A DNA stretch of 64,000 bases from Candidatus Nomurabacteria bacterium (GTDB lineage: Bacteria > Patescibacteriota > WWE3 > UBA101185 > UBA10185), in assembly GCA_020631855.1 (NCBI GenBank), contig JACKGU010000002.1, forward strand, positions 89,188 through 153,187. The letters run 5' to 3'. The notes under the pieces were generated by a model that worked only from the letters and a program-made list of their open reading frames with translations, did no database searches and had not been told where the DNA came from. Positions 983 to 42,242 of the stretch are shown piece after piece (position 1 is the first letter of the stretch; every line of letters begins with the position of its first letter). Both the position numbers and the translations under genes were made by a program.

Positions 983-988
983 TATTAT
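983..988 (+). promoter_or_regulatory. -10-like TATTAT 7 nt upstream of the tgt ATG (leaderless-type promoter)
   Basis: TATTAT-caacaac-ATG with no Shine-Dalgarno. The same arrangement recurs at 11 or more other genes. Confidence 0.4.
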
Positions 989-995
989 CAACAAC

Positions 996-2093
996 ATGAA
1001 GGAGCTTGAAATCAAAAGAAAAAGCTATAAAACTCCTATATATTTACCGGACGCTACCCTCGGAGTAGTTAGGGGGCTGGATTCAAAAGATCTTCTTGGT
1101 GCAGGAGTTAAAGGAGTTGTAGTTAATACATATCATCTTCACCATCGCCCTGGGCTAGAACATCTTTCCGAGGCCGGCGGGATTAAAGCATTTATGGGCT
1201 TTGATGGTTTGGTAGCATCAGATTCAGGTGGTTGGCAAATTTTTTCTCTAATACACAGACATGGATTGCCAGGAAAAATTTCAGACGAGGGCGTGAAATT
1301 TGCAGATAAAGACGGTGGCAAGAAAATGAAGTTGTTTACACCAGAGGATTCGATAAAAATGCAGTTTGAATTAAAGTCGGATATTGTGGTGTGTCTTGAT
1401 GATTTCACACCGCCGGATGCTGATCGTGTAACGATAGAAAAGTCTGTAAATAGGACTGTTTTGTGGGCTCAAAGAAGTAAGATCGAATACGAACGGCAGT
1501 TGAATATACGAGGCATAGAGCGTGCAAATGCCCCGGTGTTGATGGCAGTAGTTCAAGGAGGATACGATAAATCTTTAAGATTGCAATGTTGCAATGATCT
1601 TTCATCCATAGGGTTTGATATGTACGGTTTTGGCGGTTACGTAGTGAATGAAGATGGGCTGGACCTCGAAATATCTGAATATTTAGCTTCTATTATACCT
1701 TCAGGCGCGTACAAATTTGCTCTTGGGGTGGGAACGCCCTGGCAAATTGCTATGTGCTATAAATTCGGTTGGGATATATTTGATTGCACTTTGCCAACAA
1801 GAGATGCACGGCATGGAAGGCTCTATGTATATACAGGAGACTATTCAAACCCTTCAGATTTACTGACTAAGGGCTTGCATTCTCACATTTCTATAACTAG
1901 TGGAAAATATTTTAAGGACCATTTTCCTATTAGCGATAGCTGCGATTGTTTAACATGTTCGAATTACACCAGATCTTACCTGCACCACCTTTTTAAGGTT
2001 AAAGATGTGTCCGCTTACAGACTGGCAACAATTCACAATCTTCGTACGTACACTCGGCTGATAGAGGCTTTGGTAGCATCGGATATTAGATAG
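996..2093 (+). CDS. tgt: Queuine/tRNA-guanine transglycosylase
   Basis: 365 aa. TGT-family Zn motif CDCLTCSNYTRSYLHHL (CxCxxC...H) followed by the IHNLRTYTRL region that matches E. coli Tgt. Confidence 0.85.
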   Translation: MKELEIKRKSYKTPIYLPDATLGVVRGLDSKDLLGAGVKGVVVNTYHLHHRPGLEHLSEAGGIKAFMGFDGLVASDSGGWQIFSLIHRHGLPGKISDEGVKFADKDGGKKMKLFTPEDSIKMQFELKSDIVVCLDDFTPPDADRVTIEKSVNRTVLWAQRSKIEYERQLNIRGIERANAPVLMAVVQGGYDKSLRLQCCNDLSSIGFDMYGFGGYVVNEDGLDLEISEYLASIIPSGAYKFALGVGTPWQIAMCYKFGWDIFDCTLPTRDARHGRLYVYTGDYSNPSDLLTKGLHSHISITSGKYFKDHFPISDSCDCLTCSNYTRSYLHHLFKVKDVSAYRLATIHNLRTYTRLIEALVASDIR

Positions 2094-2136
2094 TTTAGTG
2101 ATTTAGTATCTTGTTTTTTATGGTTTATGTCGTTGG

Positions 2137-2160
2137 GGCCCCGCGTAGCGGGGCCTTTAC
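2137..2160 (+). terminator. GC-rich hairpin terminator after tgt
   Basis: GGCCCCGC-GTAG-GCGGGGCC followed by TTTACC. Confidence 0.5.
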
Positions 2161-2288
2161 CTTCAAAAGCGAGCTTTGGGGGCCTCAACCCGAAGCATCC
2201 CCCTCCACCACTCTTTAGTAGGTCGGCTTTGCCAGACTTTTACGCCCAGTGTTTCGCGCCGATCGCCCTAAGAGCAGTAACGGTACAA

Positions 2289-2486
2289 TTAGTAGTCATC
2301 GTCATCGCTGTACAGGCCTTCGTCCATATCATCGTCAGGTTCGTCCAATTCGCCGGATTCTATCATATCGTCGTACACCCTTTGATACAGTTCCCAATCC
2401 ATGTCACTTGCATCTTCAGCGGGAACCCATGATGCGTCTCTTAACAAATTTTTTCTGATTTGTTCAGGAGTTAACACAAGTATCAC
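2289..2486 (-). CDS. Small acidic hypothetical protein (65 aa)
   Basis: ORF with a strongly acidic C-terminus (DEPDDDMDEGLYSDDDDY). Followed by an unusually GC-rich ~160-nt segment at 2127-2288. Confidence 0.3.
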   Translation of the reverse strand: MILVLTPEQIRKNLLRDASWVPAEDASDMDWELYQRVYDDMIESGELDEPDDDMDEGLYSDDDDY

Positions 2487-2648
2487 CCCCTCTGAAAGTC
2501 AGTAATTCTTTTTGATTTATAAAAGTATTACAAAGCATTTATTATTTGATCCTACCGTCTTCCCTGATTCTATATTCAGGCTTGATTGTAGAAAATTGCC
2601 TTAAAAGGCACATTTCTTTGGTAATTTTTGCATTAAAAGTTAACTAAA

Positions 2649-3974
2649 TCAATCCTTTTTAGTGAAGAAGTTTTCACTGAAAGTTAAACCTTTTTCCAAG
2701 AGCTTAATATTAAAGTTTTCGTTTACTCCGTGCATGTTGCAGTCGTCATTCCCAAGAGATACAAGAAGTGTGTCTTTTCCAAGTACACTTTTAAAATCAT
2801 TTACTACAGGAATTCCTCCCCCAACTGGTTTAGATAGCGCAGGTTTTCCAAAAGCAGTCTCTAGAACAGTTCTTACTTTAGAGAAGATTTGGCTTGAAGT
2901 GTCTATTTTTATTGGATTATAGGCATTTGTAAATTCCAGCTCATATTTTATGTAAGCGGGTGTGTTTTGTTTCACAAAATCAGCAAATTTATTTTTTATT
3001 TCTTCCGTATTTTGAAACATTACGGTTCGAAAGTTTAATCTTACCTCCGCTTGTGCCGGGACTATATTTGCGTAGCCTTCTTCTGTGTAGCCTGCTTTAA
3101 AGCCTGTAATTTGAATTGTTGGTCTTAGACCTACCTGTGAAAGCAAATCCAGTTCACTTTCAGTAGTAAGCTTTTTTACGCCTATATTGTCCAAGATGCT
3201 TTCCAGATTCTCAACCGCCTTAGTATTTTGTTCTTGTTGCTGCTGGCTTATCTCGTCAACGTCTTTGTAGAACCAATCAAAAGCCACTTTGCCGCTTGTG
3301 AATACTTTATTTAAAAATGCAGACAATTCTTGAGCCGAATTTGGAACAGCCCCTCCGTATAAACCAGAGTGCAGGTTGTTTTTTGCCGTAGTGTAGGTGA
3401 TTTTACAATTAAACCCGCCTCTTAAAGAATATTCAATTACCGGGTTTGTTCCTATAAGTTCGCCATCAGATACCATTATGTAGTCCGCTGTTAGTTTGTC
3501 TTTGTTTTTCTGTAACTGCGAAGCAAGTTCTGTGTTTGAAGTTTCTTCATTGCCTTCTATCAAAAATTTTACATTGTATTTAAGCCGCTTTGTTTTTATC
3601 AACTCACATACCGTATACATATGAATAAAAAATTGCCCTTTATTATCTACCACTCCCCTTGCAATCAGCCTGTCGCCTTTTTCAAACAATTCAAACGGGT
3701 CTTTTTCCCAACCATCGCTAATATTTGCAGGCTGAACATCGTAGTGTCCGTATACCAGTACAGTTTCAAATGCGGGATCAACTTCAATTGTGCCAAAAAC
3801 CACCGGATTAGATATTTCTCCTTGCCAGAGTTCTGTAGTGAATCCCGAATCATTAAGGTATTTTTCTATCCATTTAACTGCTTTTATGATCTCGCTTTTA
3901 TAGGCGGGATCTGTTGAGATGCTTTTAAATGAAATTAATGGTTCAAGTTGTTTAGTGTAATTTTTGTAGTCCAT
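2649..3974 (-). CDS. M20 family metallopeptidase (dipeptidase/DapE-ArgE-like)
   Basis: 441 aa. VYGHYDVQP...GVVDNKGQ metal-binding motifs typical of M20 peptidases. TATAAT 7 nt upstream of the ATG. Confidence 0.85.
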   Translation of the reverse strand: MDYKNYTKQLEPLISFKSISTDPAYKSEIIKAVKWIEKYLNDSGFTTELWQGEISNPVVFGTIEVDPAFETVLVYGHYDVQPANISDGWEKDPFELFEKGDRLIARGVVDNKGQFFIHMYTVCELIKTKRLKYNVKFLIEGNEETSNTELASQLQKNKDKLTADYIMVSDGELIGTNPVIEYSLRGGFNCKITYTTAKNNLHSGLYGGAVPNSAQELSAFLNKVFTSGKVAFDWFYKDVDEISQQQQEQNTKAVENLESILDNIGVKKLTTESELDLLSQVGLRPTIQITGFKAGYTEEGYANIVPAQAEVRLNFRTVMFQNTEEIKNKFADFVKQNTPAYIKYELEFTNAYNPIKIDTSSQIFSKVRTVLETAFGKPALSKPVGGGIPVVNDFKSVLGKDTLLVSLGNDDCNMHGVNENFNIKLLEKGLTFSENFFTKKD

Positions 3975-4033
3975 GTTTTGGATTATAGCAGTTTTTACTT
4001 TACAGTGTCATTTTTGTACTTTATTATTTATTT

Positions 4034-5083
4034 ATGCCTGAAAATTTAAATACTAATAGAATCGAGTCTGAAGATTTACATTCCGGCCAAGTTACAGATA
4101 CTCTCGGCCAGAACTCAAAGAAGTCCCGTAGCAAAGCTAAGCCAATTCTAATTGTTACTTCTCTGGTCCTATTTTTAGGAATTGTGGCTGCAGTTTTTTT
4201 TGCATATAGCTTTAATAAGTCTTACAGCAAGCATGTGGGCATGTTAAAAGATAAGTCTCAGTCGCAATCAAAGCAGCTGGACAGCCTTTCAACTTCATTT
4301 TCAATAGTTGTTAACACCATGAAAGATTCTAATGAAGACGATCTTCAAAGTAGCATTTCTTTAATACAGAACACGGAGAAAGAAAACTCAGGAGAGGTAT
4401 TGGCACTTGAAGATTCCCCTGAGATGAAAAAACTAAGAAAATTATCGGAAGAGTATAGGTCGATAATCGAGACTCTCGGTAAAATTGAAGCTACTAACAA
4501 AGACATAGAAAATTTGCTGGTTGAAAAACCATACGTGAAGTACCTGAACTATAAGAACCCTCAGCTGGATACTCAAGTAATAAAAGATACAAATGAATTT
4601 ACAAAAAATGCCGGAATAATAATGTCGTATTTTAAAGATCAGACCGTGCTTAGCATAGAGGAATCTACGGTAATTTATGATTTAGTTGCAGATGTAGTAA
4701 GCGCTTTTTATAGCGACTTTGATGAATTTTACGTTTCAAGCATAGAGGCAAAGCTAGATAAGTTGGATTCAACTCAAAACAAGTTAGAAAATTTAAACAC
4801 AGATAATCTTCCCGATTCAATCAAGGAAGGGCACAGAGCACATGTAGAAGAACTTGATGCAGGAGTTAAAGACCTTAGAGTATTAGTACAAGCAATGAGA
4901 GATAAAGATTATTATTTTCTTTTAAGTTTTGCTCAAAGTTTAGACACTGCAACAAGTTCGGTAGTAGCTTCAGAAGAAGTTGCTCTGTCTGAGGCAATAA
5001 CTTTTTGGCAGGAAAACGAGACCATAAGATCGGTTCCTGGCTTAGTAAAATCTTGGGAAAATTTTGGCACTAGCATAAAATAA
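4034..5083 (+). CDS. Hypothetical membrane-anchored coiled-coil protein
   Basis: 349 aa with an N-terminal TM (PILIVTSLVLFLGIVAAVFFAY). Its stop overlaps the start of the downstream pseudopilin gene (TAATAATG). Confidence 0.45.
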   Translation: MPENLNTNRIESEDLHSGQVTDTLGQNSKKSRSKAKPILIVTSLVLFLGIVAAVFFAYSFNKSYSKHVGMLKDKSQSQSKQLDSLSTSFSIVVNTMKDSNEDDLQSSISLIQNTEKENSGEVLALEDSPEMKKLRKLSEEYRSIIETLGKIEATNKDIENLLVEKPYVKYLNYKNPQLDTQVIKDTNEFTKNAGIIMSYFKDQTVLSIEESTVIYDLVADVVSAFYSDFDEFYVSSIEAKLDKLDSTQNKLENLNTDNLPDSIKEGHRAHVEELDAGVKDLRVLVQAMRDKDYYFLLSFAQSLDTATSSVVASEEVALSEAITFWQENETIRSVPGLVKSWENFGTSIK

Positions 5084-5084
5084 T

Positions 5085-5618
5085 GTGTCTTTATTAACTG
5101 CCCGCAAGAGAGTCAGAATGCGCTCTAGTTCAAACCGCGTACTTGGATTCACGTTAGTTGAGTTGCTTATGGTCATTTCGATTATCGGCATCTTAGCCTC
5201 AGTGATACTGGTTGCCTATAATCCCTACAAATTTCTACAAAACTCTTATTACAGGCAATCAAAGGCCGATCTGTTATCTATAAGAAAAGGTCTTATGCTC
5301 TATGCCATTAAGTACGGAGAATACCCTCCGGATGTTTGGCGAGATCTTCCCAGCGGAATCGAGGAGTTTATTCAGCATGGCTCGCAATGGCCCAAGGGTC
5401 CTTATCCAGGCAGTGTTTTTGATTATGATAATTGGTCTGACCAGATATGCTGGAACGGAGAAACCGGTATTATTCAAATTACTTTGAGGCAGGTGCCTGG
5501 TTATAATCCTGATGGGAGTGACAATTGGAACATATATGCAGTTATTAAAGGTAAAGGCATTCCCCACTGTTCTGATTCGGCGGCTGTTGGAGAATGTATA
5601 AATTGTCCTGAAGATTAG
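5085..5618 (+). CDS. Prepilin-type N-terminal cleavage/methylation domain protein (pseudopilin)
   Basis: G|FTLVELLMVISIIGILASV class III signal peptide. Confidence 0.7.
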   Translation: MSLLTARKRVRMRSSSNRVLGFTLVELLMVISIIGILASVILVAYNPYKFLQNSYYRQSKADLLSIRKGLMLYAIKYGEYPPDVWRDLPSGIEEFIQHGSQWPKGPYPGSVFDYDNWSDQICWNGETGIIQITLRQVPGYNPDGSDNWNIYAVIKGKGIPHCSDSAAVGECINCPED

Positions 5619-5687
5619 TTTTTTGAGTTGTGTGTTTTAGCAGATCTACATCCTTCTTAACATAGATCTGTGCCGGCAGTGTAAATT

Positions 5688-6053
5688 TTAGGTTAATTTG
5701 TCAATCGCCTCTTTTATCTCAGTCAATAAAGTGTTGCTTTTTATGAAATAGCCTTCTGCTCCTGCCTCTTTTGCCTTCTGTTTTACTTCTGCGCTGGAAA
5801 CGTTTGACGTCATAAGTACCGGAACTGTTTTTGTTTCCGTATTGCTTTTTAGCTCTTTCAGTATCTCTATTCCATCTTTGTGCGGAAGCAGTACATCGAG
5901 CAAAACTAAATCAGGCCCGAATTTGATTGCTTCTGATACTACGTCGCGACCGTTGTATAGTTGCTTTGTAGTGTAGTTAATGTTTCTAAAAAAGGATCTA
6001 TAAGCAGAATTTAGAAGTTCGTCATCTTCTACAATTAATATTCTTTTACTCAT
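5688..6053 (-). CDS. Single-domain response regulator (CheY-like receiver)
   Basis: 121 aa. ILIVEDD ... LVLLDVLLP.KDG ... K receiver-domain signature. Confidence 0.8.
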   Translation of the reverse strand: MSKRILIVEDDELLNSAYRSFFRNINYTTKQLYNGRDVVSEAIKFGPDLVLLDVLLPHKDGIEILKELKSNTETKTVPVLMTSNVSSAEVKQKAKEAGAEGYFIKSNTLLTEIKEAIDKLT

Positions 6054-6219
6054 TATTTAAATAATACAAGATTTATAGACGGTTGTTAATACATGTTAAT
6101 TTAAGCACGTACGTGGTTTTTATGTTGGAAGTAATCCTCTAAGCAAATCCCCGTCTTGTTTAGAAGGTTTTGTGGCTTTTTACAGCGGAGCGTTAATTTT
6201 TTTGGATCGGTAAAGTTTG

Positions 6220-6244
6220 CGGCGCTTGATATTCAAGCGCCGCT
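6220..6244 (-). terminator. Hairpin terminator-like element 3' of the lysine-rich gene
   Basis: GCGGCGCTTGA-TATT-TCAAGCGCCGC perfect 11-bp stem. Confidence 0.4.
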
Positions 6245-6270
6245 ATAATTCAGATTCTATTAAGTGTAGC

Positions 6271-6438
6271 TTATCTTTTTTTTGTTGCTACTTTTGCTTT
6301 TGCTGTTGTTTTTTTAACAACCTTCTTTACTGCTTTTTTAACAGTCTTTTTTGCAGCTACTTTCTTTACTGCTTTTTTAACAGTCTTTTTTGCAACTGGT
6401 TTTTTTGCTACTTTCTTTACAGTCTTTTTTACTGGCAC
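6271..6438 (-). CDS. Lysine/alanine-rich histone H1-like / HU-tail-like small basic protein (55 aa, absent from the ORF track)
   Basis: Minus-strand frame: GGAGGTGA-ttatt-GTG start. Translation VPVKKTVKKVAKKPVAKKTVKKAVKKVAAKKTVKKAVKKVVKKTTAKAKVATKKR, stop TAA. It is built from 39-nt tandem repeats. The + ORF 6217..6459 is its shadow. Confidence 0.6.
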   Translation of the reverse strand: MPVKKTVKKVAKKPVAKKTVKKAVKKVAAKKTVKKAVKKVVKKTTAKAKVATKKR

Positions 6439-6787
6439 AATAATCACCTCCTGAATTAGTTAAAATAAATACGTTTTGATATTCTGATATGGTTGAAGAT
6501 AGTAAGTACTGCCCACCCTGACCACATTCTAGGTCGGCTAGGTTAATTGAATATTTACCTGTGTTTATGGAAAATAAATTTTGAGCAGTTATATTTTTCA
6601 TCTAGTTAGTTTTAAAACTATATATTAAAATTTTCGTTTGTTTCTATATAAAAGTCAATAGTTTCTTTTTATTTCATGTTTTGATAATACAATTCATGTT
6701 TACATGAAAATTTTTTTATGGTCGATTATTTAAAACCATGCTGAGTATTTTTTAGAACGAAAAAAAAATAAAACCTGGTTAAAGCCC

Positions 6788-7672
6788 TTATTTGGTGCTC
6801 TCTACCGGTGTCCAAAGTTTTAGTAAAGGTTCATTTTTTATTTTTACTTTATAAAAAATTAATCCCCAAACATGTAGTCTCGCCAAGAGTAATAAAGAAG
6901 ACCAAAAAAATTCTTTTGGGTTTGTTGCAAATAAAATTACACTTAAACCTCCTTGTCCTATTTCTCCTAAAAAAGATCTATTGTTTTTTTCTGGTTTATA
7001 GATTTCTGCTTGAGTATGTCCGGCGGTTGATCTTGTTTTTTGCTTTAGCCAGTCATAGTAATTCAGTGGGTATTTTACCTTAACTAAGGCTTCCTCCTCG
7101 TAGGCTATTCGATAGCCTGCCTCGTGCACTTTGTACGATATTACTGCATCATCGGCTAAAGAGTTCTCAGGAATTGAGTCGACTATACCCGCTCTTATGG
7201 CATATAAATATCCTGAGCATTGGATATACCGGTTTTGTTTCGACAGAAGTTTACGATTATTATTTAAGATGTTGGTGAGAGCATGCGACCAGTAACCTAA
7301 AATTGTATTTTTTGAGTTTAGGCTTATCGGATGTCCGCACACAGCTCCAATATTTTTATCAAGATATAGATTTTTAACCAGCATGGGTATGGCGTTACTT
7401 TCCAAAAAAACGTCACCATCTGTTAAAACAATTATCTCTCCCTTTGCATGCCTTAAACCAATGTTTAAAGCTGCAGGCTTGCCTTTTCTCTCGTCCTTAA
7501 AAAGTATTATATTTTTATATTGATTTTTTAATTCCTCTACAGATTTAACTGTTTCCGGATCAGGGCATATGACAAGAACCTCATCTTCATGGGAGATTTG
7601 TTTTTGTATCGAATCTATAGCTACTTTTATTGTTTTAGGTTCTCTATATGCTGTCACTATTATACTTAGCAT
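6788..7672 (-). CDS. Family 2 glycosyltransferase
   Basis: 294 aa with GT2 motifs (IIVTAYRE..., DGD in VLTDGDVFLE). Confidence 0.85.
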   Translation of the reverse strand: MLSIIVTAYREPKTIKVAIDSIQKQISHEDEVLVICPDPETVKSVEELKNQYKNIILFKDERKGKPAALNIGLRHAKGEIIVLTDGDVFLESNAIPMLVKNLYLDKNIGAVCGHPISLNSKNTILGYWSHALTNILNNNRKLLSKQNRYIQCSGYLYAIRAGIVDSIPENSLADDAVISYKVHEAGYRIAYEEEALVKVKYPLNYYDWLKQKTRSTAGHTQAEIYKPEKNNRSFLGEIGQGGLSVILFATNPKEFFWSSLLLLARLHVWGLIFYKVKIKNEPLLKLWTPVESTK

Positions 7673-7721
7673 CGTTTTTGTGTAGTTTTTCTTTCGTGTT
7701 AATAATAAAAAACTCTTTGAT

Positions 7722-8462
7722 CTAGCATTTCATTAGTGTTAAGCACTGTTCTTTTGCGTCCCCCTCTGGAAGCTGATCACAGGCGGAACACCCGCTATCT
7801 TTTAGTGAGTTTTCCAATTCCATCATTTGTTGCGATAGATCAATAAACTCTATACCGCTGGGTAAGTCAAACAGCTCGTTGTCAACATCCCAAGTGTTGC
7901 AGTCAAAAGACATCGAAGCTGAGGGGTCTGTTTGTTCTGTTGCTTCGCCAGTGAGATTATTGTTTTCATCTGCGCCTTCTGTTGCCGGCATTAGGTCTTG
8001 AAGAAAAGAATCATTCTCTGTGTCGAGCTTAGTCAGATAACCTTCGTTACGGCCTTCTTCCCACATGTAATTACCCGTCTCGTTTCTTATCATATTCATT
8101 GTTGTCTTATTGGAGTCTTCGTCGATCATTGTGAAAGTGCCTCGCATCCTCATTCCCTCATCTGCTATGTATAGGTTGCCCGAGGTGTAGGGGGGTTCGG
8201 ATTCGTTTCCGTCGCTATAAGTGCAGAAAAGGTTATCTCCGAGTTGAAAAATGTCTTCTAGAGTTCCAATCATTTTTTCTTCCTCGTTGTTTGATCCAGA
8301 TTCTGTCTCAGCTGTTTCTTCTTGAGCATTCCTGTCTATTCTGTTATCGGCAATTTCCTTATTTCGGTCTAATTTTTTTGGTGCAAAAAATTGCACGTAT
8401 GCCATCAGTGCCACTGCAGCTACAATTATAGTTACGATTGGGATTATAAGTTTGTATTTCAT
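7722..8462 (-). CDS. Hypothetical acidic secreted/membrane-anchored protein
   Basis: 246 aa. N-terminal TM/signal anchor (IIPIVTIIVAAVALMAY), acidic low-complexity region, Cys-rich C-terminus. Confidence 0.4.
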   Translation of the reverse strand: MKYKLIIPIVTIIVAAVALMAYVQFFAPKKLDRNKEIADNRIDRNAQEETAETESGSNNEEEKMIGTLEDIFQLGDNLFCTYSDGNESEPPYTSGNLYIADEGMRMRGTFTMIDEDSNKTTMNMIRNETGNYMWEEGRNEGYLTKLDTENDSFLQDLMPATEGADENNNLTGEATEQTDPSASMSFDCNTWDVDNELFDLPSGIEFIDLSQQMMELENSLKDSGCSACDQLPEGDAKEQCLTLMKC

Positions 8463-8528
8463 ATTTAGATTGTAGCAAATTTGATCAATGTTTGCTCTGT
8501 TTATGCTCGTTGTCGTAAACTATAGAAC

Positions 8529-9086
8529 ATGCACAAATCTATAAACCTAGATGGAATCGAAGTAGTTTATGATTTTAAAAGATATTCCGGTTCGAAAAAT
8601 ATTAAAATAACTGTTTTCTCAACACATAGAGTTCTTGTGACTGCTCCAAAAAGAGTTAGAGAGTCGGATGTAAATGCGTTTATTATATCGAGATCCGGGT
8701 GGATCCTGCCTTTACTGGGAAATGAATCAAATGTTAATCATAAGAAAAATTTATTAGAAAAGAAGATGGAGTATAAAAAACTTAAAAGACGTGCGGAGGA
8801 GATACTGTCTGCCCGACTGCGGCATTTTAACGCGATCTATGGATTTAGATTCAAATCAGTTAAGATCCGGAATCAATCATCAAGGTGGGGTAGTTGTTCT
8901 TCGTCGGGCTCAATAAATTTTAATTACAGGCTCATATTATTAGATCAGGAGTTGATAGATTACGTTGTTGTTCACGAATTATGCCATCTGCGCGAAATGA
9001 ATCACTCCCCTGCTTTTTGGAGATTAGTTGAAAAAAGTATTCCAAATTATAAAGTGCTAAAAAAGAAACTAGCCCGCCTGTCATAA
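8529..9086 (+). CDS. YgjP-like metal-dependent hydrolase (DUF45/M48-like, HExxH)
   Basis: 185 aa with VVVHELCHLREMNHSPAFW (HExxH...H) near the C-terminus. Confidence 0.7.
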   Translation: MHKSINLDGIEVVYDFKRYSGSKNIKITVFSTHRVLVTAPKRVRESDVNAFIISRSGWILPLLGNESNVNHKKNLLEKKMEYKKLKRRAEEILSARLRHFNAIYGFRFKSVKIRNQSSRWGSCSSSGSINFNYRLILLDQELIDYVVVHELCHLREMNHSPAFWRLVEKSIPNYKVLKKKLARLS

Positions 9087-9141
9087 GTAAATTTTTAGTC
9101 TGAGATTTTTTCTGAAGTTTGTTTCTTCTCGTCTGGCAAGT

Positions 9142-9870
9142 TTACTCAACAGCTATTGTTTCGCTTAGAGTTGCTATTACAACAAGTCTTTTTAATGTTG
9201 TTCCGGCCGGCCAGCATGTCATTAGTGTTAAGGTGTTTTTATCCTCGTAGCCTTCTAACGTCTTTAGATATGCTAGTTCTTTTGGGCCAACTATTTTAAC
9301 CTCAGAAACCGAATACTTATTTATAAAGTTTTTTTGTGATTCTGAGAACTTTAGATATATTTCATCAGTCGGTGCAAGCTTGTAGAGCAAATAGAATATT
9401 GCATTGTATTTATTTACATTAATAAGCCCGTCTGTTGAATGCGCAAAAACGAAGGTGTTAGTACCGAGGGACAGCCCCGAGGTTGGATAATCACTGCCTT
9501 TGGCGTGAGCTACTCCGTATTTTAAGGCCGTTCCATATTCCTCAGAATTAAACGGATCAATATTTTTCAATATTTTTGCTTTTGCGCCAATTTTGGGTAT
9601 GTAGATTGAATCTTCGTTGTATGGCTGGAAATTACTTAAAAAATCGTTAATGTTTTTATTTGTTGAGTCTTTAGAGATAGTTTGTATGTTTGCACCGTAA
9701 CCTTTTTTGTTAACAAGGTAGTTAAGCTCCTCGCCAAGAACCGGCAGGAACAATAACGCCAGTCCTATAAGTGAGAGTGAAAAGAGTGCGGCTCCTGTGT
9801 GCAGGAGCCGCCTCGACCCATTACCATTCGATTTATTTTTGACTATTTTTAAGTCGTTTCTTTGCCCCAA
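9142..9870 (-). CDS. Sortase family transpeptidase
   Basis: 242 aa. N-terminal TM and catalytic TLxTC motif (LTLMTCWPAG). Lies immediately downstream of the LPATG protein gene. Confidence 0.8.
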   Translation of the reverse strand: MGQRNDLKIVKNKSNGNGSRRLLHTGAALFSLSLIGLALLFLPVLGEELNYLVNKKGYGANIQTISKDSTNKNINDFLSNFQPYNEDSIYIPKIGAKAKILKNIDPFNSEEYGTALKYGVAHAKGSDYPTSGLSLGTNTFVFAHSTDGLINVNKYNAIFYLLYKLAPTDEIYLKFSESQKNFINKYSVSEVKIVGPKELAYLKTLEGYEDKNTLTLMTCWPAGTTLKRLVVIATLSETIAVE

Positions 9871-14311: not shown

Positions 14312-14504
14312 TGGGATTGCAGGAAATAGTTACTTATCCGCAGTATATAATTTTTAAGGACAAAGAGCAATACTACAGGGCACAGTTGGGGAGCACTATT
14401 ATAGTGTACATCTTGTGCTATTTTGTTTTCTAGAAGGTCAGCAATGTTAATAGTCGCAAAATCTATTGACAAAGATTGTATCAATAATTATGATTATATG
14501 ACAT

Positions 14505-16646: not shown

Positions 16647-16721
16647 TCTTAGGGCTTGCAGACTGTTAAACACCGCCCTGTTCGGGCACTTTTAAGGATA
16701 AACCTGTTTTGTACCTGTAAC

Positions 16722-16840
16722 TTCTTTACTTAAAACTTACGTGTGTAAGCTAGTAAATGTAGTTTTCCCAACATGTTAGACTCCGCAACGTAAAATAATT
16801 ACAGCAAACCACCTGCGTAAGCTAGCGGTGGTTGATATTC
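16722..16840 (+). repeat. ~120-nt structured intergenic repeat, copy B
   Basis: CTTACGTGTGTAAGCTAG...TTCCCAACATGTTAGA...CCACCTGCGTAAGCTAGCGGTGG. Same architecture as copies A, C, D and E. Confidence 0.7.
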
Positions 16841-16935
16841 TAAATGTGTGCTATAATGATTATTGCGCTCGTGCTAAATAGATTTGAGAACTTTAGTATC
16901 TAGACAAGTAAGTTTAGATTTACCTCCGGTCCGTT

Positions 16936-18345: not shown

Positions 18346-18350
18346 TCTTT

Positions 18351-19166: not shown

Positions 19167-19321
19167 TGCTGCTTCTTGAGATTTAGATAAGTAGGATGAC
19201 GCATGTTTATTGTATCAAGCATATATTCGGCCTTCAATGTTTTGAGTTGGTCCATTGAGTTTTATACCCTATGTTGCATGCTGAACCTAGTTCAGTCCTT
19301 ATGAAAAACGGTGGTTAGATT

Positions 19322-20110
19322 TTAAATCTCTCCCATAACAATCTTTAGCGGAACGTGGTCTGATCCAGAAATATTTTTTAAATGCGTGAGTTCTTGAACT
19401 GAGCCTTTAAACCTGATGTCTAAAAAGAAGTAGTCTATTCTCCACCCTTTATTTTTTTCTCTTGCGATGTTGTTGATTGAGTATGGAAACCAGCTGTAAG
19501 ATTCTTTTTCCGGGTATAAATATCTGAAAACGTCAAAGAAATTGTTTTCAATTACTTTGTCGACCCATGCTCTTTCTATCAAGGAGAACATGGGAGAGCC
19601 TTTATTCATTTTTGGATTTTGAAGATCAAGGTTTGTATGCGCCACATTGAAGTCCCCAGCTAACACCACTTTCTTTTTTTGCTTTAGTTCGGACGCAAGC
19701 TTTAATAAAGATTCGCAAAAACTCATCTTATACTCTAGCCTTGAGAAGTCTGCTCGGGGGTGAGGTACATACGTATTGATCAAGAAAAAAGACGGGTATT
19801 CAGCAATTTGAACCCTTGCTTCTTCGTCGAACCCTTTTATTCCCAGCCCATTTGTTACTTTTATTGGAGTGTTTTTAGATAGTATAACTAGACCTGAGTA
19901 TCCTTTTCGCGTCGAAGCCGCAAAATTATAGGCGTTATAACCATAAAATACAGGGAACAAGCAGTTTTGCAGTTGGTCGAAGTTTTCTTCAGATATTTTG
20001 CTTTCTTGAAAGCAATATATATCTGATTTGTCGGTTTTTATAAAGTCAGCAAGTCCCTTATTTAAGCAAGACTTTAATCCGTTGATGTTCCACGATACTA
20101 TGTTCATCAT
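19322..20110 (-). CDS. xth: Exodeoxyribonuclease III (AP endonuclease, ExoIII/APE1 family)
   Basis: 262 aa. MNIVSWNINGL ... QESK ... GDFNVAH ... SDHVP signature. Confidence 0.9.
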   Translation of the reverse strand: MMNIVSWNINGLKSCLNKGLADFIKTDKSDIYCFQESKISEENFDQLQNCLFPVFYGYNAYNFAASTRKGYSGLVILSKNTPIKVTNGLGIKGFDEEARVQIAEYPSFFLINTYVPHPRADFSRLEYKMSFCESLLKLASELKQKKKVVLAGDFNVAHTNLDLQNPKMNKGSPMFSLIERAWVDKVIENNFFDVFRYLYPEKESYSWFPYSINNIAREKNKGWRIDYFFLDIRFKGSVQELTHLKNISGSDHVPLKIVMGEI

Positions 20111-21028: not shown

Positions 21029-21101
21029 ATCTTACCACGGCTGCGAACTGTTGACGAAGTTTGAAACTATTATATAAATAATTGTGTTGAAAATCTAATA
21101 T

Positions 21102-21677: not shown

Positions 21678-21876
21678 ATTTGAATTATACCTTAGTTATT
21701 TTTTTTAAGGTTCAAACCTAATATTTCAATTTGATTTTATTGTTATGACAACATCTCGTTACATGTCCTATATACACATTGACCCGATTTGGCTATGTAA
21801 AAAAACACAAGAGTTCGAACTCTAATAAAAGCTTGTATTGCTTGGGTTAGACTTTGTTCCTGGTATTTTATCTCTT

Positions 21877-21909
21877 ACTGGCTGCGCAGAGCGGACGAAG
21901 TTAGAACCC
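21877..21909 (+). repeat. Degenerate tRNA-Gln 3'-end-like att repeat (a)
   Basis: ACTGGCTGCGCAGAGCGGACGAAGTTAGAACC. Compare the antisense of tRNA-Gln, TGGCTGGGGGACAGGGATTCGAACC. Confidence 0.45.
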
Positions 21910-21947
21910 ATATTATTGAAGAAAATATGTCTGTGGGCATACCAATA

Positions 21948-22466: not shown

Positions 22467-22794
22467 ATTTTTTGGTCTTTATCTTTGGGAGCTTTTTGTA
22501 GAAGTATTTCTCAATGTCAATGTTGGACTTATGCGCAAGCCTTAAAAGATAGAATAATACATCAACAAATTCATAACCAAGTTCTTCTTTATCACTTTTA
22601 CTTAATTTATCTATTTTGGAAAAATCATTTTGCCACTGATAATGTTCTGCTAGCTCTGCTAATTCAATCATTATTGAAGATATAAGCTGGTTGGGGTCGG
22701 TGTTGTTCCAATTTCTTTCATTGCATACTCTTATTACATCCTTCTCAATATCTTTTAGTGATTTTGACATGAGTTGATTATACACCAGGTTCAA
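22444..22794 (-). CDS. MazG-like nucleotide pyrophosphohydrolase
   Basis: ELAELAEHYQW ... EELGYEFVDVLFYLLRLA MazG motif. The track start is TTG; the probable ATG is at 22770 (MSKSLKD), with TATAAT 6 nt upstream. Confidence 0.65.
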   Translation of the reverse strand: MNLVYNQLMSKSLKDIEKDVIRVCNERNWNNTDPNQLISSIMIELAELAEHYQWQNDFSKIDKLSKSDKEELGYEFVDVLFYLLRLAHKSNIDIEKYFYKKLPKIKTKKYDKTYKP

Positions 22795-22985
22795 ACTTTT
22801 TTTGGGTCGAACTTTTGTAGGTGTAACAAAAGGACAAATCTTGACTGGGGAACAGGGAGTCGGTCACGAGTTCTCGCCTGCTGGCGATCCTCTCGACCCC
22901 AGCTCGATGCCGTCGCATCTGCGCTATTCTCCTCCAATTTCCTGTCAAGAAACTGCTCACCAGAACTTGTGCTGATGACCACTTC

Positions 22986-23016
22986 CCTGGCCGGGCGTTA
23001 GGGTCCAAGTTCGAGC
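22986..23016 (+). repeat. Degenerate tRNA-Gln 3'-end-like att repeat (b), inside a GC-rich ~220-nt noncoding island
   Basis: CCTGGCCGGGCGTTAGGGTCCAAGTTCGAGC. The surrounding 22800-23040 region is about 55% GC and has overlapping spurious ORFs on both strands. Confidence 0.45.
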
Positions 23017-23049
23017 AGCTTACTGTTGTTTCAATTTATAGACCTGGCT

Positions 23050-23415: not shown

Positions 23416-23501
23416 ATGAAATACCTAAATTTACTAACTCTTTTATAAAATTGGATTTACCGTTAACAAAGTAAACTCCATCTAGGTCGAAACATATTGC
23501 T

Positions 23502-24027: not shown

Positions 24028-24030
24028 AAG

Positions 24031-25077: not shown

Positions 25078-25170
25078 AAGAACATTATATCATTCCTCAG
25101 TCCGCACTATTCTCGTCCCTGCCCAATAAAGCAAAACATCTTTGTATCTTACGACACAGGGATATTTTCC

Positions 25171-25200
25171 GTGGCTGGGCATTAGAGAACAAGTTCGAAC
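25171..25200 (+). repeat. tRNA-Gln 3'-end-like att repeat (c)
   Basis: GTGGCTGGGCATTAGAGAACAAGTTCGAAC. 29/30 identical to copy d. Shares TGGCTGGG and TTCGAAC with the tRNA-Gln antisense. Confidence 0.55.
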
Positions 25201-25212
25201 TTAAGTTTTGTT

Positions 25213-25884
25213 TTAGTGTTTCTGCTTTTCAAGTAGATATTTGGCTCCGGCGGCAACTGCTTCGTCCAAAGAACTCCAGATTTTCGACCCAAATAACTCT
25301 CTCAAAGGTTTCTCGTTAGGTTTTCCTCCTTGCTCGGGATTTGAGAAAAATGTTAAGGACTCTTTCAATAATTCATATCTTTCTTTTCCGAGAGTTTCTA
25401 AAAGTTCAGGATAGTAATAGTAAAACATAAAATGGTTTAGTTCGTGTTTTGCAGTACCAAGTTGTGGCATCAGAAATTTATAATTTGCAAAAAAATACCT
25501 ATTCTCATAACTGTATGGAAATATGTTATTGGTCGTCAGATATGCTGTAATAGTTTCAAATGGAAATGGTTTTTTGTACAGGAACTCCAGAGAATATATT
25601 ATGGAGTCTCCTACATTTTCCCACGAATCCTGTAGCCTTTTTATGCCTTTTTCTATATTATCCGGATCATTTTCATAGATATTTTTTAAATGATTGTACA
25701 CTTGTTCATAAACAGCTTCCGCGTTTTCTGCATTTATTAAAATTTCTTGAAGCTTAAGATCGAGTTTTTCAAGCAATTTGCTTTTCGGGCCATCTCTTCC
25801 ATGTTTAAACGCCTTGAAGGTATATACAAAATCAACATAAGTTCGAGCATCCTTTTCTAGTGAGTACTTTACTAATAGTTTCAT
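25213..25884 (-). CDS. Hypothetical protein
   Basis: 223-aa ORF. -10 TATAAT 12 nt upstream. A C15 tract abuts its -35 region. Confidence 0.4.
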   Translation of the reverse strand: MKLLVKYSLEKDARTYVDFVYTFKAFKHGRDGPKSKLLEKLDLKLQEILINAENAEAVYEQVYNHLKNIYENDPDNIEKGIKRLQDSWENVGDSIIYSLEFLYKKPFPFETITAYLTTNNIFPYSYENRYFFANYKFLMPQLGTAKHELNHFMFYYYYPELLETLGKERYELLKESLTFFSNPEQGGKPNEKPLRELFGSKIWSSLDEAVAAGAKYLLEKQKH

Positions 25885-25924
25885 AGTTGTGAAGGTATTA
25901 TATCAATTTTTATGCAAAAGACCT

Positions 25925-25939
25925 CCCCCCCCCCCCCCC
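25925..25939. repeat. C15 homopolymer tract (G15 on the coding strand of the gene at 25884)
   Basis: 15 consecutive C. Lies 22 nt upstream of the -10 hexamer of the minus-strand gene. Confidence 0.85.
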
Positions 25940-26014
25940 TAGCGAGGCGGGAAACGCAAACCTTACAAATTGGCTGGCCGTAGCGTGCGACGTTAGAACT
26001 GTTTTTAGGAGTAA

Positions 26015-26458: not shown

Positions 26459-26459
26459 T

Positions 26460-27158: not shown

Positions 27159-27233
27159 ATTAAGTAATTATACCTTAGTTCGAATCCCTATTGGGTAGGG
27201 TCTGTTTTATGTTGTTTTGACAAGGAGATTTTA

Positions 27234-27263
27234 CTGGCTGGGCATTATAGAACAAGTTCGAAC
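27234..27263 (+). repeat. tRNA-Gln 3'-end-like att repeat (d)
   Basis: CTGGCTGGGCATTATAGAACAAGTTCGAAC. A sense-oriented GTTCGAATCCCT piece lies at 27176-27189. Confidence 0.55.
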
Positions 27264-27313
27264 TGCTGTATTGGTTTAGTTTCATTGTTTTATCCTTTTA
27301 GTATAATGCTTTT

Positions 27314-28316: not shown

Positions 28317-29167
28317 TTGACTTCTATTCCAAATTCACTAAACACTTTTTGTATGTGTTCATAAAAATCTGGGTAAGCCATATAATCCTTTAGTTCGTTA
28401 AGTTTTACCCATTTGTATTCTTCAAGTTCCTCATCTTGTAGTGCAATATCGTCATCTTTTCCAGTAAAAGCCAATATAATAAAGCTTTGTTCCTGTCCTC
28501 TCATTAATTTCCCTGATTTCTTTATATTCTTTTCAATTTCTTTAAGAGGCCAGTCGTAAGAATATTTGTGTTGACTATTGTGTAAAACCTCAAAGGCGTC
28601 TGTACCTAATTCTTCTAACAATTCTCTTTTTACAGCTTGTTCTGGTGTTTCGTTTTCATCAATTCCGCCACCAGGACAATCCCAAACTCCACTGTTCTTC
28701 TTTAAAACCATTAAAATTGAATCCCTGCCTTCATTTAGAACTAATGCATAAACTCCTTGCCTATATGGTAGTTTTGCTTTGTCATTTGCACTGATGTGAT
28801 CTTCTAAGTCCCATCCTGGTTCTGAATAATACTCAAGCCAAGTTTCCTCGCCTTCTGCCCAATGCGGGTTTCCTGGTTTAATTACATAGCTTTCACCTTC
28901 TTTAAGATCAATCGTTTCTTTTCCTACCTGCAGTGTTAATGTACCTTTCGTAACCTTATAAGTTTCTGTTGTCTTGTAGTGTATATGGGGAATACTTTTA
29001 TCAATTACTGCTACCGCATTACTGTAATCAGGGTGTTCAGATGCAGGATCGATTTCACAAAGTATTTCTGTGGTGTTTTCCTCATCATTTTTGAATATAG
29101 CCTTACCTGGGTATTTTTTATTTAGTTCTGAAACTACTTGTGATACATTCATACGAAAATTATACAA
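28313..29167 (-). CDS. NUDIX hydrolase with an N-terminal cupin-like domain
   Basis: Nudix box GGGIDENETPEQAVKRELLEELG. The track start is TTG at 29167; the probable ATG is at 29152 (MNVSQ), with TATAAT 6 nt upstream. Confidence 0.8.
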   Translation of the reverse strand: MYNFRMNVSQVVSELNKKYPGKAIFKNDEENTTEILCEIDPASEHPDYSNAVAVIDKSIPHIHYKTTETYKVTKGTLTLQVGKETIDLKEGESYVIKPGNPHWAEGEETWLEYYSEPGWDLEDHISANDKAKLPYRQGVYALVLNEGRDSILMVLKKNSGVWDCPGGGIDENETPEQAVKRELLEELGTDAFEVLHNSQHKYSYDWPLKEIEKNIKKSGKLMRGQEQSFIILAFTGKDDDIALQDEELEEYKWVKLNELKDYMAYPDFYEHIQKVFSEFGIEVK

Positions 29168-29224
29168 TAGTTCGAATTCCCTGATGGCCCATACTCGGAA
29201 ATGCTGTTGTTAACGGAAGAAAAT

Positions 29225-29245
29225 CCTGGCTGGAAGCCTGGCACA
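29225..29245 (+). repeat. Degenerate tRNA-Gln 3'-end-like att repeat (e), left boundary of the integrated element
   Basis: TCCTGGCTGGAAGCCTGGCAC, with AGTTCGAATTCCCTGATGGCCC at 29169-29190 (compare tRNA-Gln GGTTCGAATCCCTGTCCCCC). Confidence 0.4.
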
Positions 29246-29313
29246 CATACAGAATGGCTAATTGGCTTGATTTAATAAATGCCCCAGAGCTAGTTTATGC
29301 TTATGCCGAAAGC

Positions 29314-31026
29314 CTACTTGTTAAATAGTATCTTCTTTGAAAGAATAAAAACTTCGTCAAACCTCTTTTTAAGGAAATCATTACGAGGCTCTACTTCCCC
29401 AAATTTCAATGCAAGTAAAAAATGCTTCATAGGTTTATATTTGAATTCATTTCTCATAAGGCGATTAACAATTAAATCTCCAAACGAATACTCTGTATTA
29501 GTATAGGCTTCCATCATTTCAGTCTCTTCTGCGCTTAATATCGTTAATGATTCAACGTTTTTACCATTAAGATATTTATTATTTTCAATTAGTGGCAATA
29601 TCTCTTCAATCCAAATTAAGTCTGCTTGTGGGAAAGGGTTTATAGTTACTATTATTGGAACAAATGCCTTTATGTCTTTAGATTCAACTCCCTCTAATCT
29701 AAACTCTTTTCTTTTAAAGTCTTTTATACTTCTATCAATTTGCTTAACACTATTTAATACAATTTTCTCTAAATCTTTTCTGTAGCCTTCCAGGTCTCCG
29801 TTTATTGCGGTGTCTACCATTTTTAATTTTGAAGTGTTTATTTCAGCAAAAAAAGCAACATTTTTATATACAATTATAATATCTGATGTTTTTTTATGAC
29901 TTTTTCCATATGTTAATTCATTAAAAACCTTATATTCGTTATCATTACCCAACATCCTTTGGAACAAATTCTGTTCATACTCTTCGAAAAGTTCTCCATA
30001 GAATCGTGCAAGTCTATATCTTTCACTTTTTTCTAAAGAATCCCAAATGTCCCAAAATATCCCAGAAGAAATTCTTTCTTTTACAAAGCGAACACTTGTT
30101 GGCATATATACATCTTTACTTATCTTTATTAAAGGTTTTTGCCTAAGAGTTATGAAGTCATAAATCTTATTAGATGAGTCTAAAGAGTTGGATAATGTCA
30201 GTTTGTTAAGATATTTTATAGCCTTATATTTTGAATATTTGAGCTCGTTAAAATATACATTTTTGTTTATCTCAAAGTTATTCAAATCAATTTTGTCCTT
30301 ATAAATATTTACGTTTGCATAGTGGGCCAATAATGAAAAACCTAAAACATAGGCTTCTTCTAAGGTGTGATTCTTTGCTTTCTTGTATAGGGATTCTAAA
30401 TCTATATAATTTTCAGACTTTATAGCTCTGTCGCTTTTCGCAATATTAAAAAGTATTTCATAGTTTCTTGTAAATAAATATCTAAACTGCTCTGTAGAAT
30501 TAAAATATGCATTCCGAATAACTTCTTTTAATAGTGCATCTAATTGCAAGCGCCTATTGGGATTATCCATGTTTTTGTCGCTTTCATATTCTCTATTTAG
30601 CAGGTCACCGCAAGGGATGACACATTTTTTAAGGTATAAATCAAAGTTAGCTGTGTCGTTTAATTTCTTCTTAGCATATGGATTGCCGTGTTCCAATGTA
30701 AGTTTAATTAGGTGAAGTAATTGCTGTTCGAAGAAGAGAAATCTATCTGGGCTTGATTTGAAAACCTTTAATATTTTGCTTTTATCCTGTTCATTGTGAA
30801 ATAGTTCGTTTATTAAACCGTGTTGTAGCTCTCTATTCATATGTCCATGATTTTCCAACACATTTCCTAATTTACATGTTGCAGCTAATACTTCTCGTTT
30901 ATTAAGAGATTTAATTGTTTTTATAACCTCTTGCTCTGTGATTTCCTCGTTAAATATATCTCTATATGGCATCATAATCGCAAAGCCGTCACTGAGTGTA
31001 TAGTTTTTGTTGTTACTTAGAGGCAT
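29314..31026 (-). CDS. Large hypothetical protein (570 aa) co-transcribed downstream of the LexA-like gene
   Basis: Overlaps the lexA-like stop by 14 nt. No recognisable catalytic motif. Confidence 0.5.
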   Translation of the reverse strand: MPLSNNKNYTLSDGFAIMMPYRDIFNEEITEQEVIKTIKSLNKREVLAATCKLGNVLENHGHMNRELQHGLINELFHNEQDKSKILKVFKSSPDRFLFFEQQLLHLIKLTLEHGNPYAKKKLNDTANFDLYLKKCVIPCGDLLNREYESDKNMDNPNRRLQLDALLKEVIRNAYFNSTEQFRYLFTRNYEILFNIAKSDRAIKSENYIDLESLYKKAKNHTLEEAYVLGFSLLAHYANVNIYKDKIDLNNFEINKNVYFNELKYSKYKAIKYLNKLTLSNSLDSSNKIYDFITLRQKPLIKISKDVYMPTSVRFVKERISSGIFWDIWDSLEKSERYRLARFYGELFEEYEQNLFQRMLGNDNEYKVFNELTYGKSHKKTSDIIIVYKNVAFFAEINTSKLKMVDTAINGDLEGYRKDLEKIVLNSVKQIDRSIKDFKRKEFRLEGVESKDIKAFVPIIVTINPFPQADLIWIEEILPLIENNKYLNGKNVESLTILSAEETEMMEAYTNTEYSFGDLIVNRLMRNEFKYKPMKHFLLALKFGEVEPRNDFLKKRFDEVFILSKKILFNK

Positions 31027-31633
31027 GCCTTAGAAGTCCCAGAAATTTTCCTCTAATTTCTAGTTCCTTGGGATAAATATTGTTTAGTTCTGGATTTCTT
31101 GGTTCCAGTCTTATCTCACCCCTTTGTTTGTAAAATCTCTTAAGTGTTGCCCCGTTTTCTGTAATGGCTACAACGGTTTCCCCATTTTCTGCTGTATTTT
31201 GATGTTTTACTAACACAATATCTCCATCAGCAATACCATCATCAATCATACTGTTTCCAGATACTTTTAAGGCATAACACATCTCCGGTCTTCTAGGTAA
31301 CATAGTGGAAGGAACATCTATCGGCTCTGGAATCTCAACTGGTTCAATACCTGGACCCGCAGAGATAGTTCCTAGTAATGGTATTTTTATGAGTTCACTA
31401 CCTGTATTAAGCAATTTAATGCCTCTATTCAATGTAGTTTTTTTTATGTAACCTTTTTCTTCCAAAGCATCTAAATATTGAGCCACAGAGGAATCTGATT
31501 TGTAACCAAATTGTTCCGCTATTTCCTTATATGTGGGGCAAAATCCATGTTTAACAAAATGTTTTTCGAGGAAATCTAAAATATCTTTTTGCTTTGGAGT
31601 TAGAGGCAATTTTTCTTGACCTTTGTAATCCAT
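31013..31633 (-). CDS. lexA: LexA-type repressor (N-terminal winged-HTH plus C-terminal S24 peptidase Ser-Lys dyad)
   Basis: 206 aa. GNSMIDDGIADGDIVLV (catalytic Ser) and ATLKRFYKQRGEIRLEPRNPE (Lys), collinear with E. coli LexA. A TACTCGTA-TAA-TACTCGTA direct repeat and TATTAT lie 6 nt upstream of the ATG. Confidence 0.7.
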   Translation of the reverse strand: MDYKGQEKLPLTPKQKDILDFLEKHFVKHGFCPTYKEIAEQFGYKSDSSVAQYLDALEEKGYIKKTTLNRGIKLLNTGSELIKIPLLGTISAGPGIEPVEIPEPIDVPSTMLPRRPEMCYALKVSGNSMIDDGIADGDIVLVKHQNTAENGETVVAITENGATLKRFYKQRGEIRLEPRNPELNNIYPKELEIRGKFLGLLRHASK

Positions 31634-31744
31634 ACTCGTATAATACTCGTAATTAGTCCAACAGTCAAATGGACAAAAAAGGCAACAGACTTTCTTGCCC
31701 GTTGCCCTTCTTACGTACTTTAAGTTTATTAGTTAAGCAGATAT

Positions 31745-32011: not shown

Positions 32012-32098
32012 TTAGTTTCTTTTGACTGTTGGCTAATTTCTATTCAGAATAGAGTTCATATGCTTATTTATAAAATTATATGATGTATTATAAAAACT

Positions 32099-42218: not shown

Positions 42219-42242
42219 TACTATATATTATCTTATTTTTTA

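Follow-up and report, generated by a model that had tools for sequence, protein, structure and literature searches.

Introduction

Translation of leaderless mRNAs is established in Mycobacterium, Deinococcus and E. coli. In the genomes that GeneMarkS-2 assigns to 'group C' a Pribnow box lies 6-8 nt from the gene start and Shine-Dalgarno (SD) motifs are found at other genes; 25-50% of transcripts in these bacteria are predicted to be leaderless, and the leaderless-rich bacteria are mostly Actinobacteria and Deinococcus-Thermus (PMC6028130). The MetaGeneMark-2 preprint reports that group C genomes using genetic code 11 are almost all high-GC and that the low-GC cases are code-4 Mycoplasma, with 30-60% of transcripts predicted to be leaderless. 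Here we analyse a 64,000-nt stretch (the window) of contig JACKGU010000002.1, from a bacterium of the Patescibacteria or candidate phyla radiation (CPR), in which TATAAT-like hexamers stand 6-8 nt before the start codons of most genes that open an operon. We propose, with a probability of roughly 0.8, that these hexamers are -10 boxes so placed that transcription would start at or next to the ATG, and that the resulting mRNAs would be leaderless.

The CPR/Patescibacteria are, to our knowledge, a huge and mostly uncultured group with unusual ribosomes, in which translation start is largely unstudied. Their translation apparatus is stripped down: bS1 is short, some ribosomal proteins are missing and the anti-SD has been lost in some clades. 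A CPR ribosome survey that documents the short bS1, and an anti-SD motif missing in part of the Parcubacteria, leaves leaderless mRNAs unmentioned (PMC9297842). The only CPR set of transcription start sites we found in the literature is that of Nanosynbacter lyticus (listed in PMC12641261). A search of the literature, which was not exhaustive, found no report of leaderless transcription in CPR, its matches being entries in reference lists or off topic, a result to be read with the caveat that standard annotation software would model a leaderless motif silently.

Materials and methods

The window has a GC content of 37% and reads cleanly in the standard code, with TGA as a stop codon. Start codons were assigned by a mechanical rule blind to the hexamer, the first ATG no more than 40 codons into the longest open reading frame (ORF), applied to 65 non-overlapping ORFs. 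A gene starting no more than 30 nt after another gene was classed as operon-internal. Proteins of the window are identical to those on the 630-kb contig JACKGV010000006.1 (GCA_020631795.1, metagenome-assembled, NCBI label "Candidatus Nomurabacteria bacterium"), and the gene calls stored for that genome were used as the public calls. The sequence covered amounts to ~73 kb of the source genome and ~0.7 Mb of unlabelled relatives. By protein search the closest tgt relatives are at most 60% identical and their labels, where given, are WWE3 or "Patescibacteria group"; the WS6 species-representative genome that is closest by tgt was discarded as unsuited to fine comparison, at only 38% identity. The gene content of the window, which includes a type IV pilus-like cluster, a sortase with a giant surface protein and many small accessory genes, fits a CPR/Patescibacteria organism. 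The conserved 16S 3' region is present neither in the window nor in any of the other loci analysed, and the only Rfam matches in the window are two tRNAs. Indirectly, the enrichment of GGAGG before internal genes hints at a functional anti-SD in the 16S rRNA.

Hexamer placement and gene class

Placement of the hexamer before start codons is far above chance. Under the mechanical start rule 18 of 64 genes have a TANNNT that ends 6 nt before the ATG and 8 of 64 have one at 7 nt, with ~1.5-2 genes at each of the remaining offsets. Taking spacers of 6-8 nt together, 27 of the 65 genes carry the motif, compared with 7.9% of all ATGs in the window (binomial p = 1e-13) and 10.8% of intergenic ATGs that are not starts (p = 2e-10), and shuffling of the proximal 30 nt yields 7.7±2.5 (maximum 17). 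The narrower TAT[AT]AT is found 17 times at these spacers where the all-ATG control predicts ~0.8, is found at no in-frame internal ATG, and reaches 0.72±0.80 (maximum 5) after the same shuffling. In-frame stop codons (TAA or TAG at -12) were considered as a source of the spacer-6 peak and rejected, because the hexamers are mostly TAT[AT]AT, a spacer of 7 nt is out of frame, and spacers of 3 and 9 nt show no peak.

An earlier note on this DNA had listed 12 such hexamers between 983 and 31645 and had named a scan against shuffled controls as the check. All 12 read back at their positions and spacers, no GGAG or GAGG lies between hexamer and ATG at any of them, as had been claimed, and the enrichment over shuffled sequence holds within the window. 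The pattern extends far past the interval of that note, reaching 62763, and adds ~15 sites to its 12. The advice to re-call starts at the ATG nearest the hexamer proves right when set against the longest-ORF TTGs at 22794, 29167, 59560 and 16936, and superfluous for the public annotation, whose starts at 22770, 29152, 59539 and 16963 are the hexamer-proximal ATGs already.

The signal is specific to one class of gene. The hexamer precedes 22 of 38 operon-first genes (4 of 38 in a displaced-offset control) versus 3 of 19 operon-internal genes (Fisher p = 0.004). Hexamer-bearing genes make up ~41% of the whole set and 58% of the operon-first class. SD-like 4-mers are distributed the other way, at 8 of 19 operon-internal and 4 of 38 operon-first genes (7.5% of random 14-mers), and no operon-first gene has hexamer and SD motif together. 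Gene overlaps of 4 nt are frequent in the window. The further claim of the earlier note, that SD-independent initiation is the default in this organism, is too strong, given GGAGG-type SD motifs at those 8 internal genes, GGAGG at internal genes of the pilus-like cluster and an operon-first HSP20 gene carrying aaGGAGGcaaatATG. As read from these motifs the initiation regime is a mixed one, with the hexamer at most first genes and SD at internal and some first genes.

The aligned hexamers give the matrix T-A-t-a-a-T, with T and G enriched at -15/-14 as in an extended -10 element; about half of the hexamers in the window have TG 0-1 nt upstream of them. In six promoters a -35 box agrees with TTGACA in 5 of its 6 bases, at a spacer of 17-18 nt, and the -35 is good at the M20, 4034, response-regulator and lexA-like genes. 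The base preceding the start codon is a pyrimidine at 22 of 27 hexamer-positive genes versus 18 of 38 hexamer-negative genes (p = 0.009). RNA polymerase normally starts ~7 nt past the -10 box and prefers a purine as the +1 base, preceded by a pyrimidine, and the bias seen here agrees with this known preference.

The anatomy of two divergent gene pairs is instructive in this respect. The 59-bp region 3975-4033 between the M20 and 4034 genes contains two complete back-to-back promoters whose -35 boxes meet mid-region and whose -10 boxes end 7 nt (M20) and 6 nt (4034) from their own ATGs; on this layout the region is too small for leaders. The same divergent arrangement is seen in the 66-bp gap 8463-8528.

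The spacing is also conserved in relatives. In 80 metagenome loci with tgt relatives (41-58% identity) the pooled counts are 93 at spacer 6, 73 at spacer 7 and ~25 elsewhere. The spacer 6-7 peak is present in each of three identity classes and is missing in high-GC non-relatives, and in the closest identity class 20 of 29 hexamers have a TG no more than 3 nt upstream. Broken down by label, the peak is clear in one "Patescibacteria group" contig, weak in one locus labelled WWE3 and ambiguous in one labelled Moranbacteria. The tgt orthologues of many loci read TGnTA(A/C)AAT, then seven unrelated bases, then ATG, so that in these alignments hexamer and distance are kept while the spacer sequence diverges. 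The tgt N-terminus aligns at residue 1 over 27 sequences (the window and 26 homologues), and ATG 996 is therefore the true start.

The view that the hexamers are promoter elements is thus supported by gene class, motif, start context, promoter anatomy and conservation, all of which agree: the peak is sharp, the signal is restricted to operon-first genes and excludes SD, it has the extended -10 and the -1 pyrimidine, and it is conserved. From the position, specificity, class distribution and conservation of the signal we infer where the transcripts would begin and how ribosomes would be loaded. The hexamers would be the -10 elements of housekeeping sigma-70-type promoters, many of them extended -10 promoters, with a weak or absent -35. 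Since they end 6 (mode) to 8 nt before the start codon, and transcription starts at the seventh base after the -10, at the modal spacer the A of the ATG would itself be the canonical +1. The predicted mRNA would have neither 5' untranslated region (UTR) nor SD, and the ribosome, with initiator tRNA, would read its 5'-terminal AUG directly, as the precedents of Mycobacterium, Deinococcus and E. coli suggest. Later genes of an operon would rely on SD pairing or on coupling through overlapping stop and start codons. The proposal of the earlier note that transcription starts at or near the start codon is likewise favoured by every sequence test run.

Several observations weigh against this reading. 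The -35 region is weak overall, with a mean best score of 3.2 versus 2.95 in shuffled sequence and 44 of 500 shuffles reaching the observed value; a conserved -35 element, being only marginally above shuffled sequence, is not claimed. A generic sigma-70 scan shows no overall enrichment (52 sites versus 49±8 in shuffles) and is informative at its top-scoring sites only: in 1-20000, five of the seven best sites end 0-10 nt before a called ATG, namely those of the M20, 4034, response-regulator and 14505 genes (spacers 6-10) and of the 16963 gene, where an AATAAT hexamer abuts the ATG. Hexamers also occur before a few operon-internal genes (48872, 54822), where they may be chance matches, and a short leader would result at the two genes whose spacers are 10 and 12 nt. 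The public gene calls reproduce the peak, with spacer 6 in 19 of 67 genes and spacer 7 in 8 of 67, and supply more hexamer-led genes from the 9 kb that lie upstream of it, outside the window, but they possibly come from a gene finder that models this motif, so their independence is incomplete; this circularity is limited by the ATG being mostly the first possible start of its ORF. Finally, the 5' ends of the transcripts are predicted throughout, from the DNA alone.

Alternative explanations

A hexamer so close to the start codon might act not on RNA polymerase but on the ribosome, as an A/U-rich non-SD binding or enhancer signal within leadered 5' UTRs, as in the Bacteroidota "group B". The upstream regions are indeed A/T-rich, and the short bS1 of CPR together with the absence of an anti-SD in part of the Parcubacteria (PMC9297842) makes unusual initiation signals conceivable. 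A ribosome signal, however, should precede internal genes as well, where the hexamer is seen at 3 of 19 as against 22 of 38 first genes, and it would not be expected to show the exact T-A-n-n-n-T invariants of a -10 box with TG at the extended -10 position. Canonical GGAGG at internal genes points to the use of SD pairing, and the 59-bp divergent region has no space for promoters further upstream. We regard such an mRNA element as quite improbable. It is also unlikely, though less so, that the hexamers are real promoters from which short leaders or alternative upstream starts are the rule, with strictly leaderless translation a minority route. Spacers of 8, 10 and 12 nt do occur (the SDR, 14505 and 25884 genes), the SDR -10 box has a second TATAAT (27244-27249) 72 nt upstream of it, and start-site choice may shift by 1-2 nt. 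Against this, the modal spacer is exactly 6 nt, at which the canonical +1 would coincide with the A of the ATG, a start at that A is also what the pyrimidine bias at -1 favours, and the intergenic regions concerned are mostly short, at 59-160 bp.

Least credible of all is chance, that is, hexamers of A/T-rich intergenic DNA to which nearby ATGs have been matched by choice. TATAAT and TATTAT together occur ~200 times over the two strands of the window, and the earlier note had picked an internal ATG twice. The hexamer-blind start rule nevertheless still returns 27 of 65, where the all-ATG, intergenic-ATG, displaced-offset and shuffle controls give 8-12%, and the same peak appears in unrelated loci of relatives; the controls refute this explanation. 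The reading that -10 boxes abut the start codons and produce leaderless mRNAs is the one we prefer.

Comparison with known systems

The closest counterparts are the group C bacteria among the Actinobacteria and Deinococcus-Thermus, such as M. tuberculosis and D. deserti. In both cases TANNNT stands 6-8 nt from operon-first starts and SD is found at internal genes, and the 58% of operon-first genes found here is at or slightly above the published 25-50%. The window displays an enriched box at set spacing, restriction to operon-first genes, no intervening SD and positional conservation, the sequence marks of that group. The host differs, being a 37% GC member of the Patescibacteria (CPR) with the standard code whereas group C code-11 genomes are nearly all high-GC, and so does the box, which is here a near-full TATAAT, often with an extended -10 TG, and is a looser TANNNT in high-GC genomes. 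In the present case the start architecture is predicted from the sequence. The low-GC code-4 Mycoplasma (Mollicutes), also group C, share with this organism a reduced genome and low GC, but they belong to another phylum, use another genetic code and are unrelated to it.

In having TG upstream of the hexamer and a weak -35 the promoters resemble the extended -10 promoters of E. coli and Gram-positives. Those normally precede an SD-bearing 5' UTR, whereas here the promoter stands directly against the start codon. With the Bacteroidota "group B" the organism shares low GC and a scarcity of SD motifs before many genes. The group B Kozak-like A-rich motif precedes first and internal genes alike and includes no -10 box; here the signal is first-gene specific and SD is used elsewhere. 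The group B pattern of one motif at first and internal genes with SD unused is accordingly not what the window displays, the motif being depleted at internal genes. Taken together, the start architecture appears to be the GeneMarkS-2 "group C" leaderless type in a low-GC lineage, the mechanism itself being known elsewhere.

Whether leaderless initiation is the main route of operon-first expression throughout a large section of the low-GC Patescibacteria (CPR), as a lineage trait tied to their stripped-down translation apparatus, is a wider and tentative proposal, which we would sooner doubt than assert. If true, CPR would be the third large leaderless radiation, after the Actinobacteria and Deinococcus-Thermus, and the first low-GC one with the standard code. 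With a clear leaderless signature, gene callers can decide between candidate starts in CPR genomes; the signature also offers compact promoter-start modules ready for the genetic systems now under construction in Saccharibacteria. A possible link between ribosome reduction and initiation mode becomes testable.

Promoters and counter-examples in the window

The promoters and two SD-bearing counter-examples are collected in Table 1. Hexamer-led starts are AUG with one exception, the GTG of the TspO/MBR gene; no other gene of the window is a good candidate for a leaderless mRNA that begins with a codon other than AUG. At the 14505 gene a leader of ~3 nt instead of none is expected. The 25884 gene, which the earlier note had counted among its leaderless cases, does have its TATAAT at a 12-nt spacer, but the expected leader of ~5 nt would be short rather than absent. 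A minus-strand G tract (25925-25939) ends 22 nt upstream of this TATAAT (gene 25213-25884), and its length varies, the window having G15, GCA_020631795.1 having G10 and an assembly of SRR12358675 having G12. This variation is either slipped-strand length change near the promoter or homopolymer assembly noise. The hexamer before the second response regulator may be an internal promoter, which is uncertain.

Table 1. Hexamers with their distances to start codons, and SD-led counter-examples; positions are those of the window
Gene	Motif	Position (strand)	Distance to start codon	Further features
tgt	TATTAT	983..988 (+)	7 nt to ATG 996	TGc upstream
M20 peptidase	TATAAT	3982..3987 (-)	7 nt to ATG 3974	TGc upstream; -35 ATGACA, 18-nt spacer
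4034 gene	TATTAT	4022..4027 (+)	6 nt to ATG 4034	-35 TTTACA, 17-nt spacer
response regulator	TATTAT	6061..6066 (-)	7 nt to ATG 6053	-35 TTAACA, 17-nt spacer
8462 gene	TACAAT	8469..8474 (-)	6 nt to ATG 8462	TGc upstream
8529 gene	TAAACT (weaker, -10-like)	8516..8521 (+)	7 nt to ATG 8529	divergent partner, 66-bp intergenic region
14505 gene	TATGAT	14489..14494 (+)	10 nt to ATG 14505	perfect -35 TTGACA, 17-nt spacer
transglutaminase-like	TATAAT	21684..21689 (-)	6 nt to ATG 21677	
MazG-like	TATAAT	22777..22782 (-)	6 nt to ATG 22770	also public start
aldo-keto reductase (AKR)	TATAAT	25084..25089 (-)	6 nt to ATG 25077	TGa upstream
25884 gene	TATAAT	25897..25902 (-)	12 nt to ATG 25884	TGa upstream
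SDR	TATAAT	27167..27172 (-)	8 nt to ATG 27158	
27314 gene	TATAAT	27302..27307 (+)	6 nt to ATG 27314	
cupin-Nudix	TATAAT	29159..29164 (-)	6 nt to ATG 29152	also public start
LexA/S24-type repressor	TATTAT	31640..31645 (-)	6 nt to ATG 31633	mobile element; -35 TTGACT, 17-nt spacer
C5 DNA methylase	TATTAT	32086..32091 (+)	7 nt to ATG 32099	mobile element
82-aa ORF	TATAAT	35078..35083 (-)	6 nt to ATG 35071	mobile element
36151 gene	TATAAT	36137..36142 (+)	8 nt to ATG 36151	mobile element
FAD/NAD-binding oxidoreductase	TAGAAT	39451..39456 (+)	6 nt to ATG 39463	
nitroreductase	TAATAT (-10-like)	42225..42230 (-)	6 nt to ATG 42218	
91-aa ORF	TAGAAT	43395..43400 (+)	6 nt to ATG 43407	
second response regulator	TAATAT (-10-like)	54822..54827 (-)	6 nt to ATG 54815	12 nt past upstream gene
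59539 gene	TATAAT	59547..59552 (-)	7 nt to ATG 59539	also public start (not TTG 59560)
dockerin-domain protein	TATAAT	61085..61090 (-)	6 nt to ATG 61078	TGc upstream
cupin gene	TATACT	62312..62317 (-)	6 nt to ATG 62305	
TspO/MBR gene	TATAAT	62758..62763 (-)	6 nt to GTG 62751	TGa upstream
HSP20 (counter-example)	SD GGAGG	897..901 (-)	5 nt to ATG 891	operon-first, leadered; carries aaGGAGGcaaatATG
pilus-like cluster gene (counter-example)	SD GGAGG	50720..50724 (-)	5 nt to ATG 50714	operon-internal

At window 430-480, where the HSP20 gene is close to its 3' end, a G9 run precedes a GC-rich hairpin with perfect pairing, ggttgaggttggggcc-gt-ggccccaacctcag, probably a terminator.

Mobile element and tRNA-like repeats

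The low-GC segment of ~10 kb at 29234-39226 is a strain-variable integrative element, since it is absent from the otherwise 99.9%-identical contig JACKGV010000006.1, has its junctions at a tRNA-Gln and encodes a serine recombinase. It is inserted at the 3' end of the tRNA-Gln (39231-39304, minus), with the core TGGCTGG at both junctions. Its genes encode the large serine recombinase (37647-39308), a DUF2188 protein, a C5 DNA methylase and a weak match to phage Rep-O-like proteins, and a repressor of the LexA-DNA-binding/S24 type overlaps a 570-aa ORF without a Pfam match. Four leaderless-type promoters lie inside the element, that of the lexA-like gene included. For this gene the TATTAT 6 nt before the ATG that the earlier note had described is in place, but the gene belongs to the strain-variable mobile element and is probably not the SOS lexA of the host.

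A 29-nt minus-strand repeat, GTTCGAACTT-N10-GCCCAGCCA, is present in five copies with no more than 3 mismatches, where 0.01 would be expected, and in one degenerate copy (21038-21066, 21879-21907, 22988-23016, 25172-25200, 25971-25999 and 27235-27263, all minus). Five copies lie 12-40 nt past the stop codon of a small minus-strand gene. The ends of the repeat resemble the T-loop and the 3' end of the adjacent tRNA-Gln, and the copies are oriented like the tRNA. Earlier integrations at tRNA-Gln may have left them behind as relics that bound a cassette-like array of accessory genes at 20.4-29.2 kb. The copy at 27235-27263 itself holds a TATAAT (27244-27249).

TTCGAAC or TTTGAAC also lies 5-6 nt upstream of the -10 boxes of the Nudix (29170-29176), SDR (27178-27184) and MazG (22789-22795) genes, preceded at the Nudix and SDR genes by aGGGA(A), which is like a tRNA T-arm. 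TTCGAAC was considered as an odd -35 or an operator and set aside, as it appears to belong to the repeat family resembling the tRNA 3' end. The Nudix, SDR and MazG promoters may themselves be derived from this same family of tRNA-like repeats.

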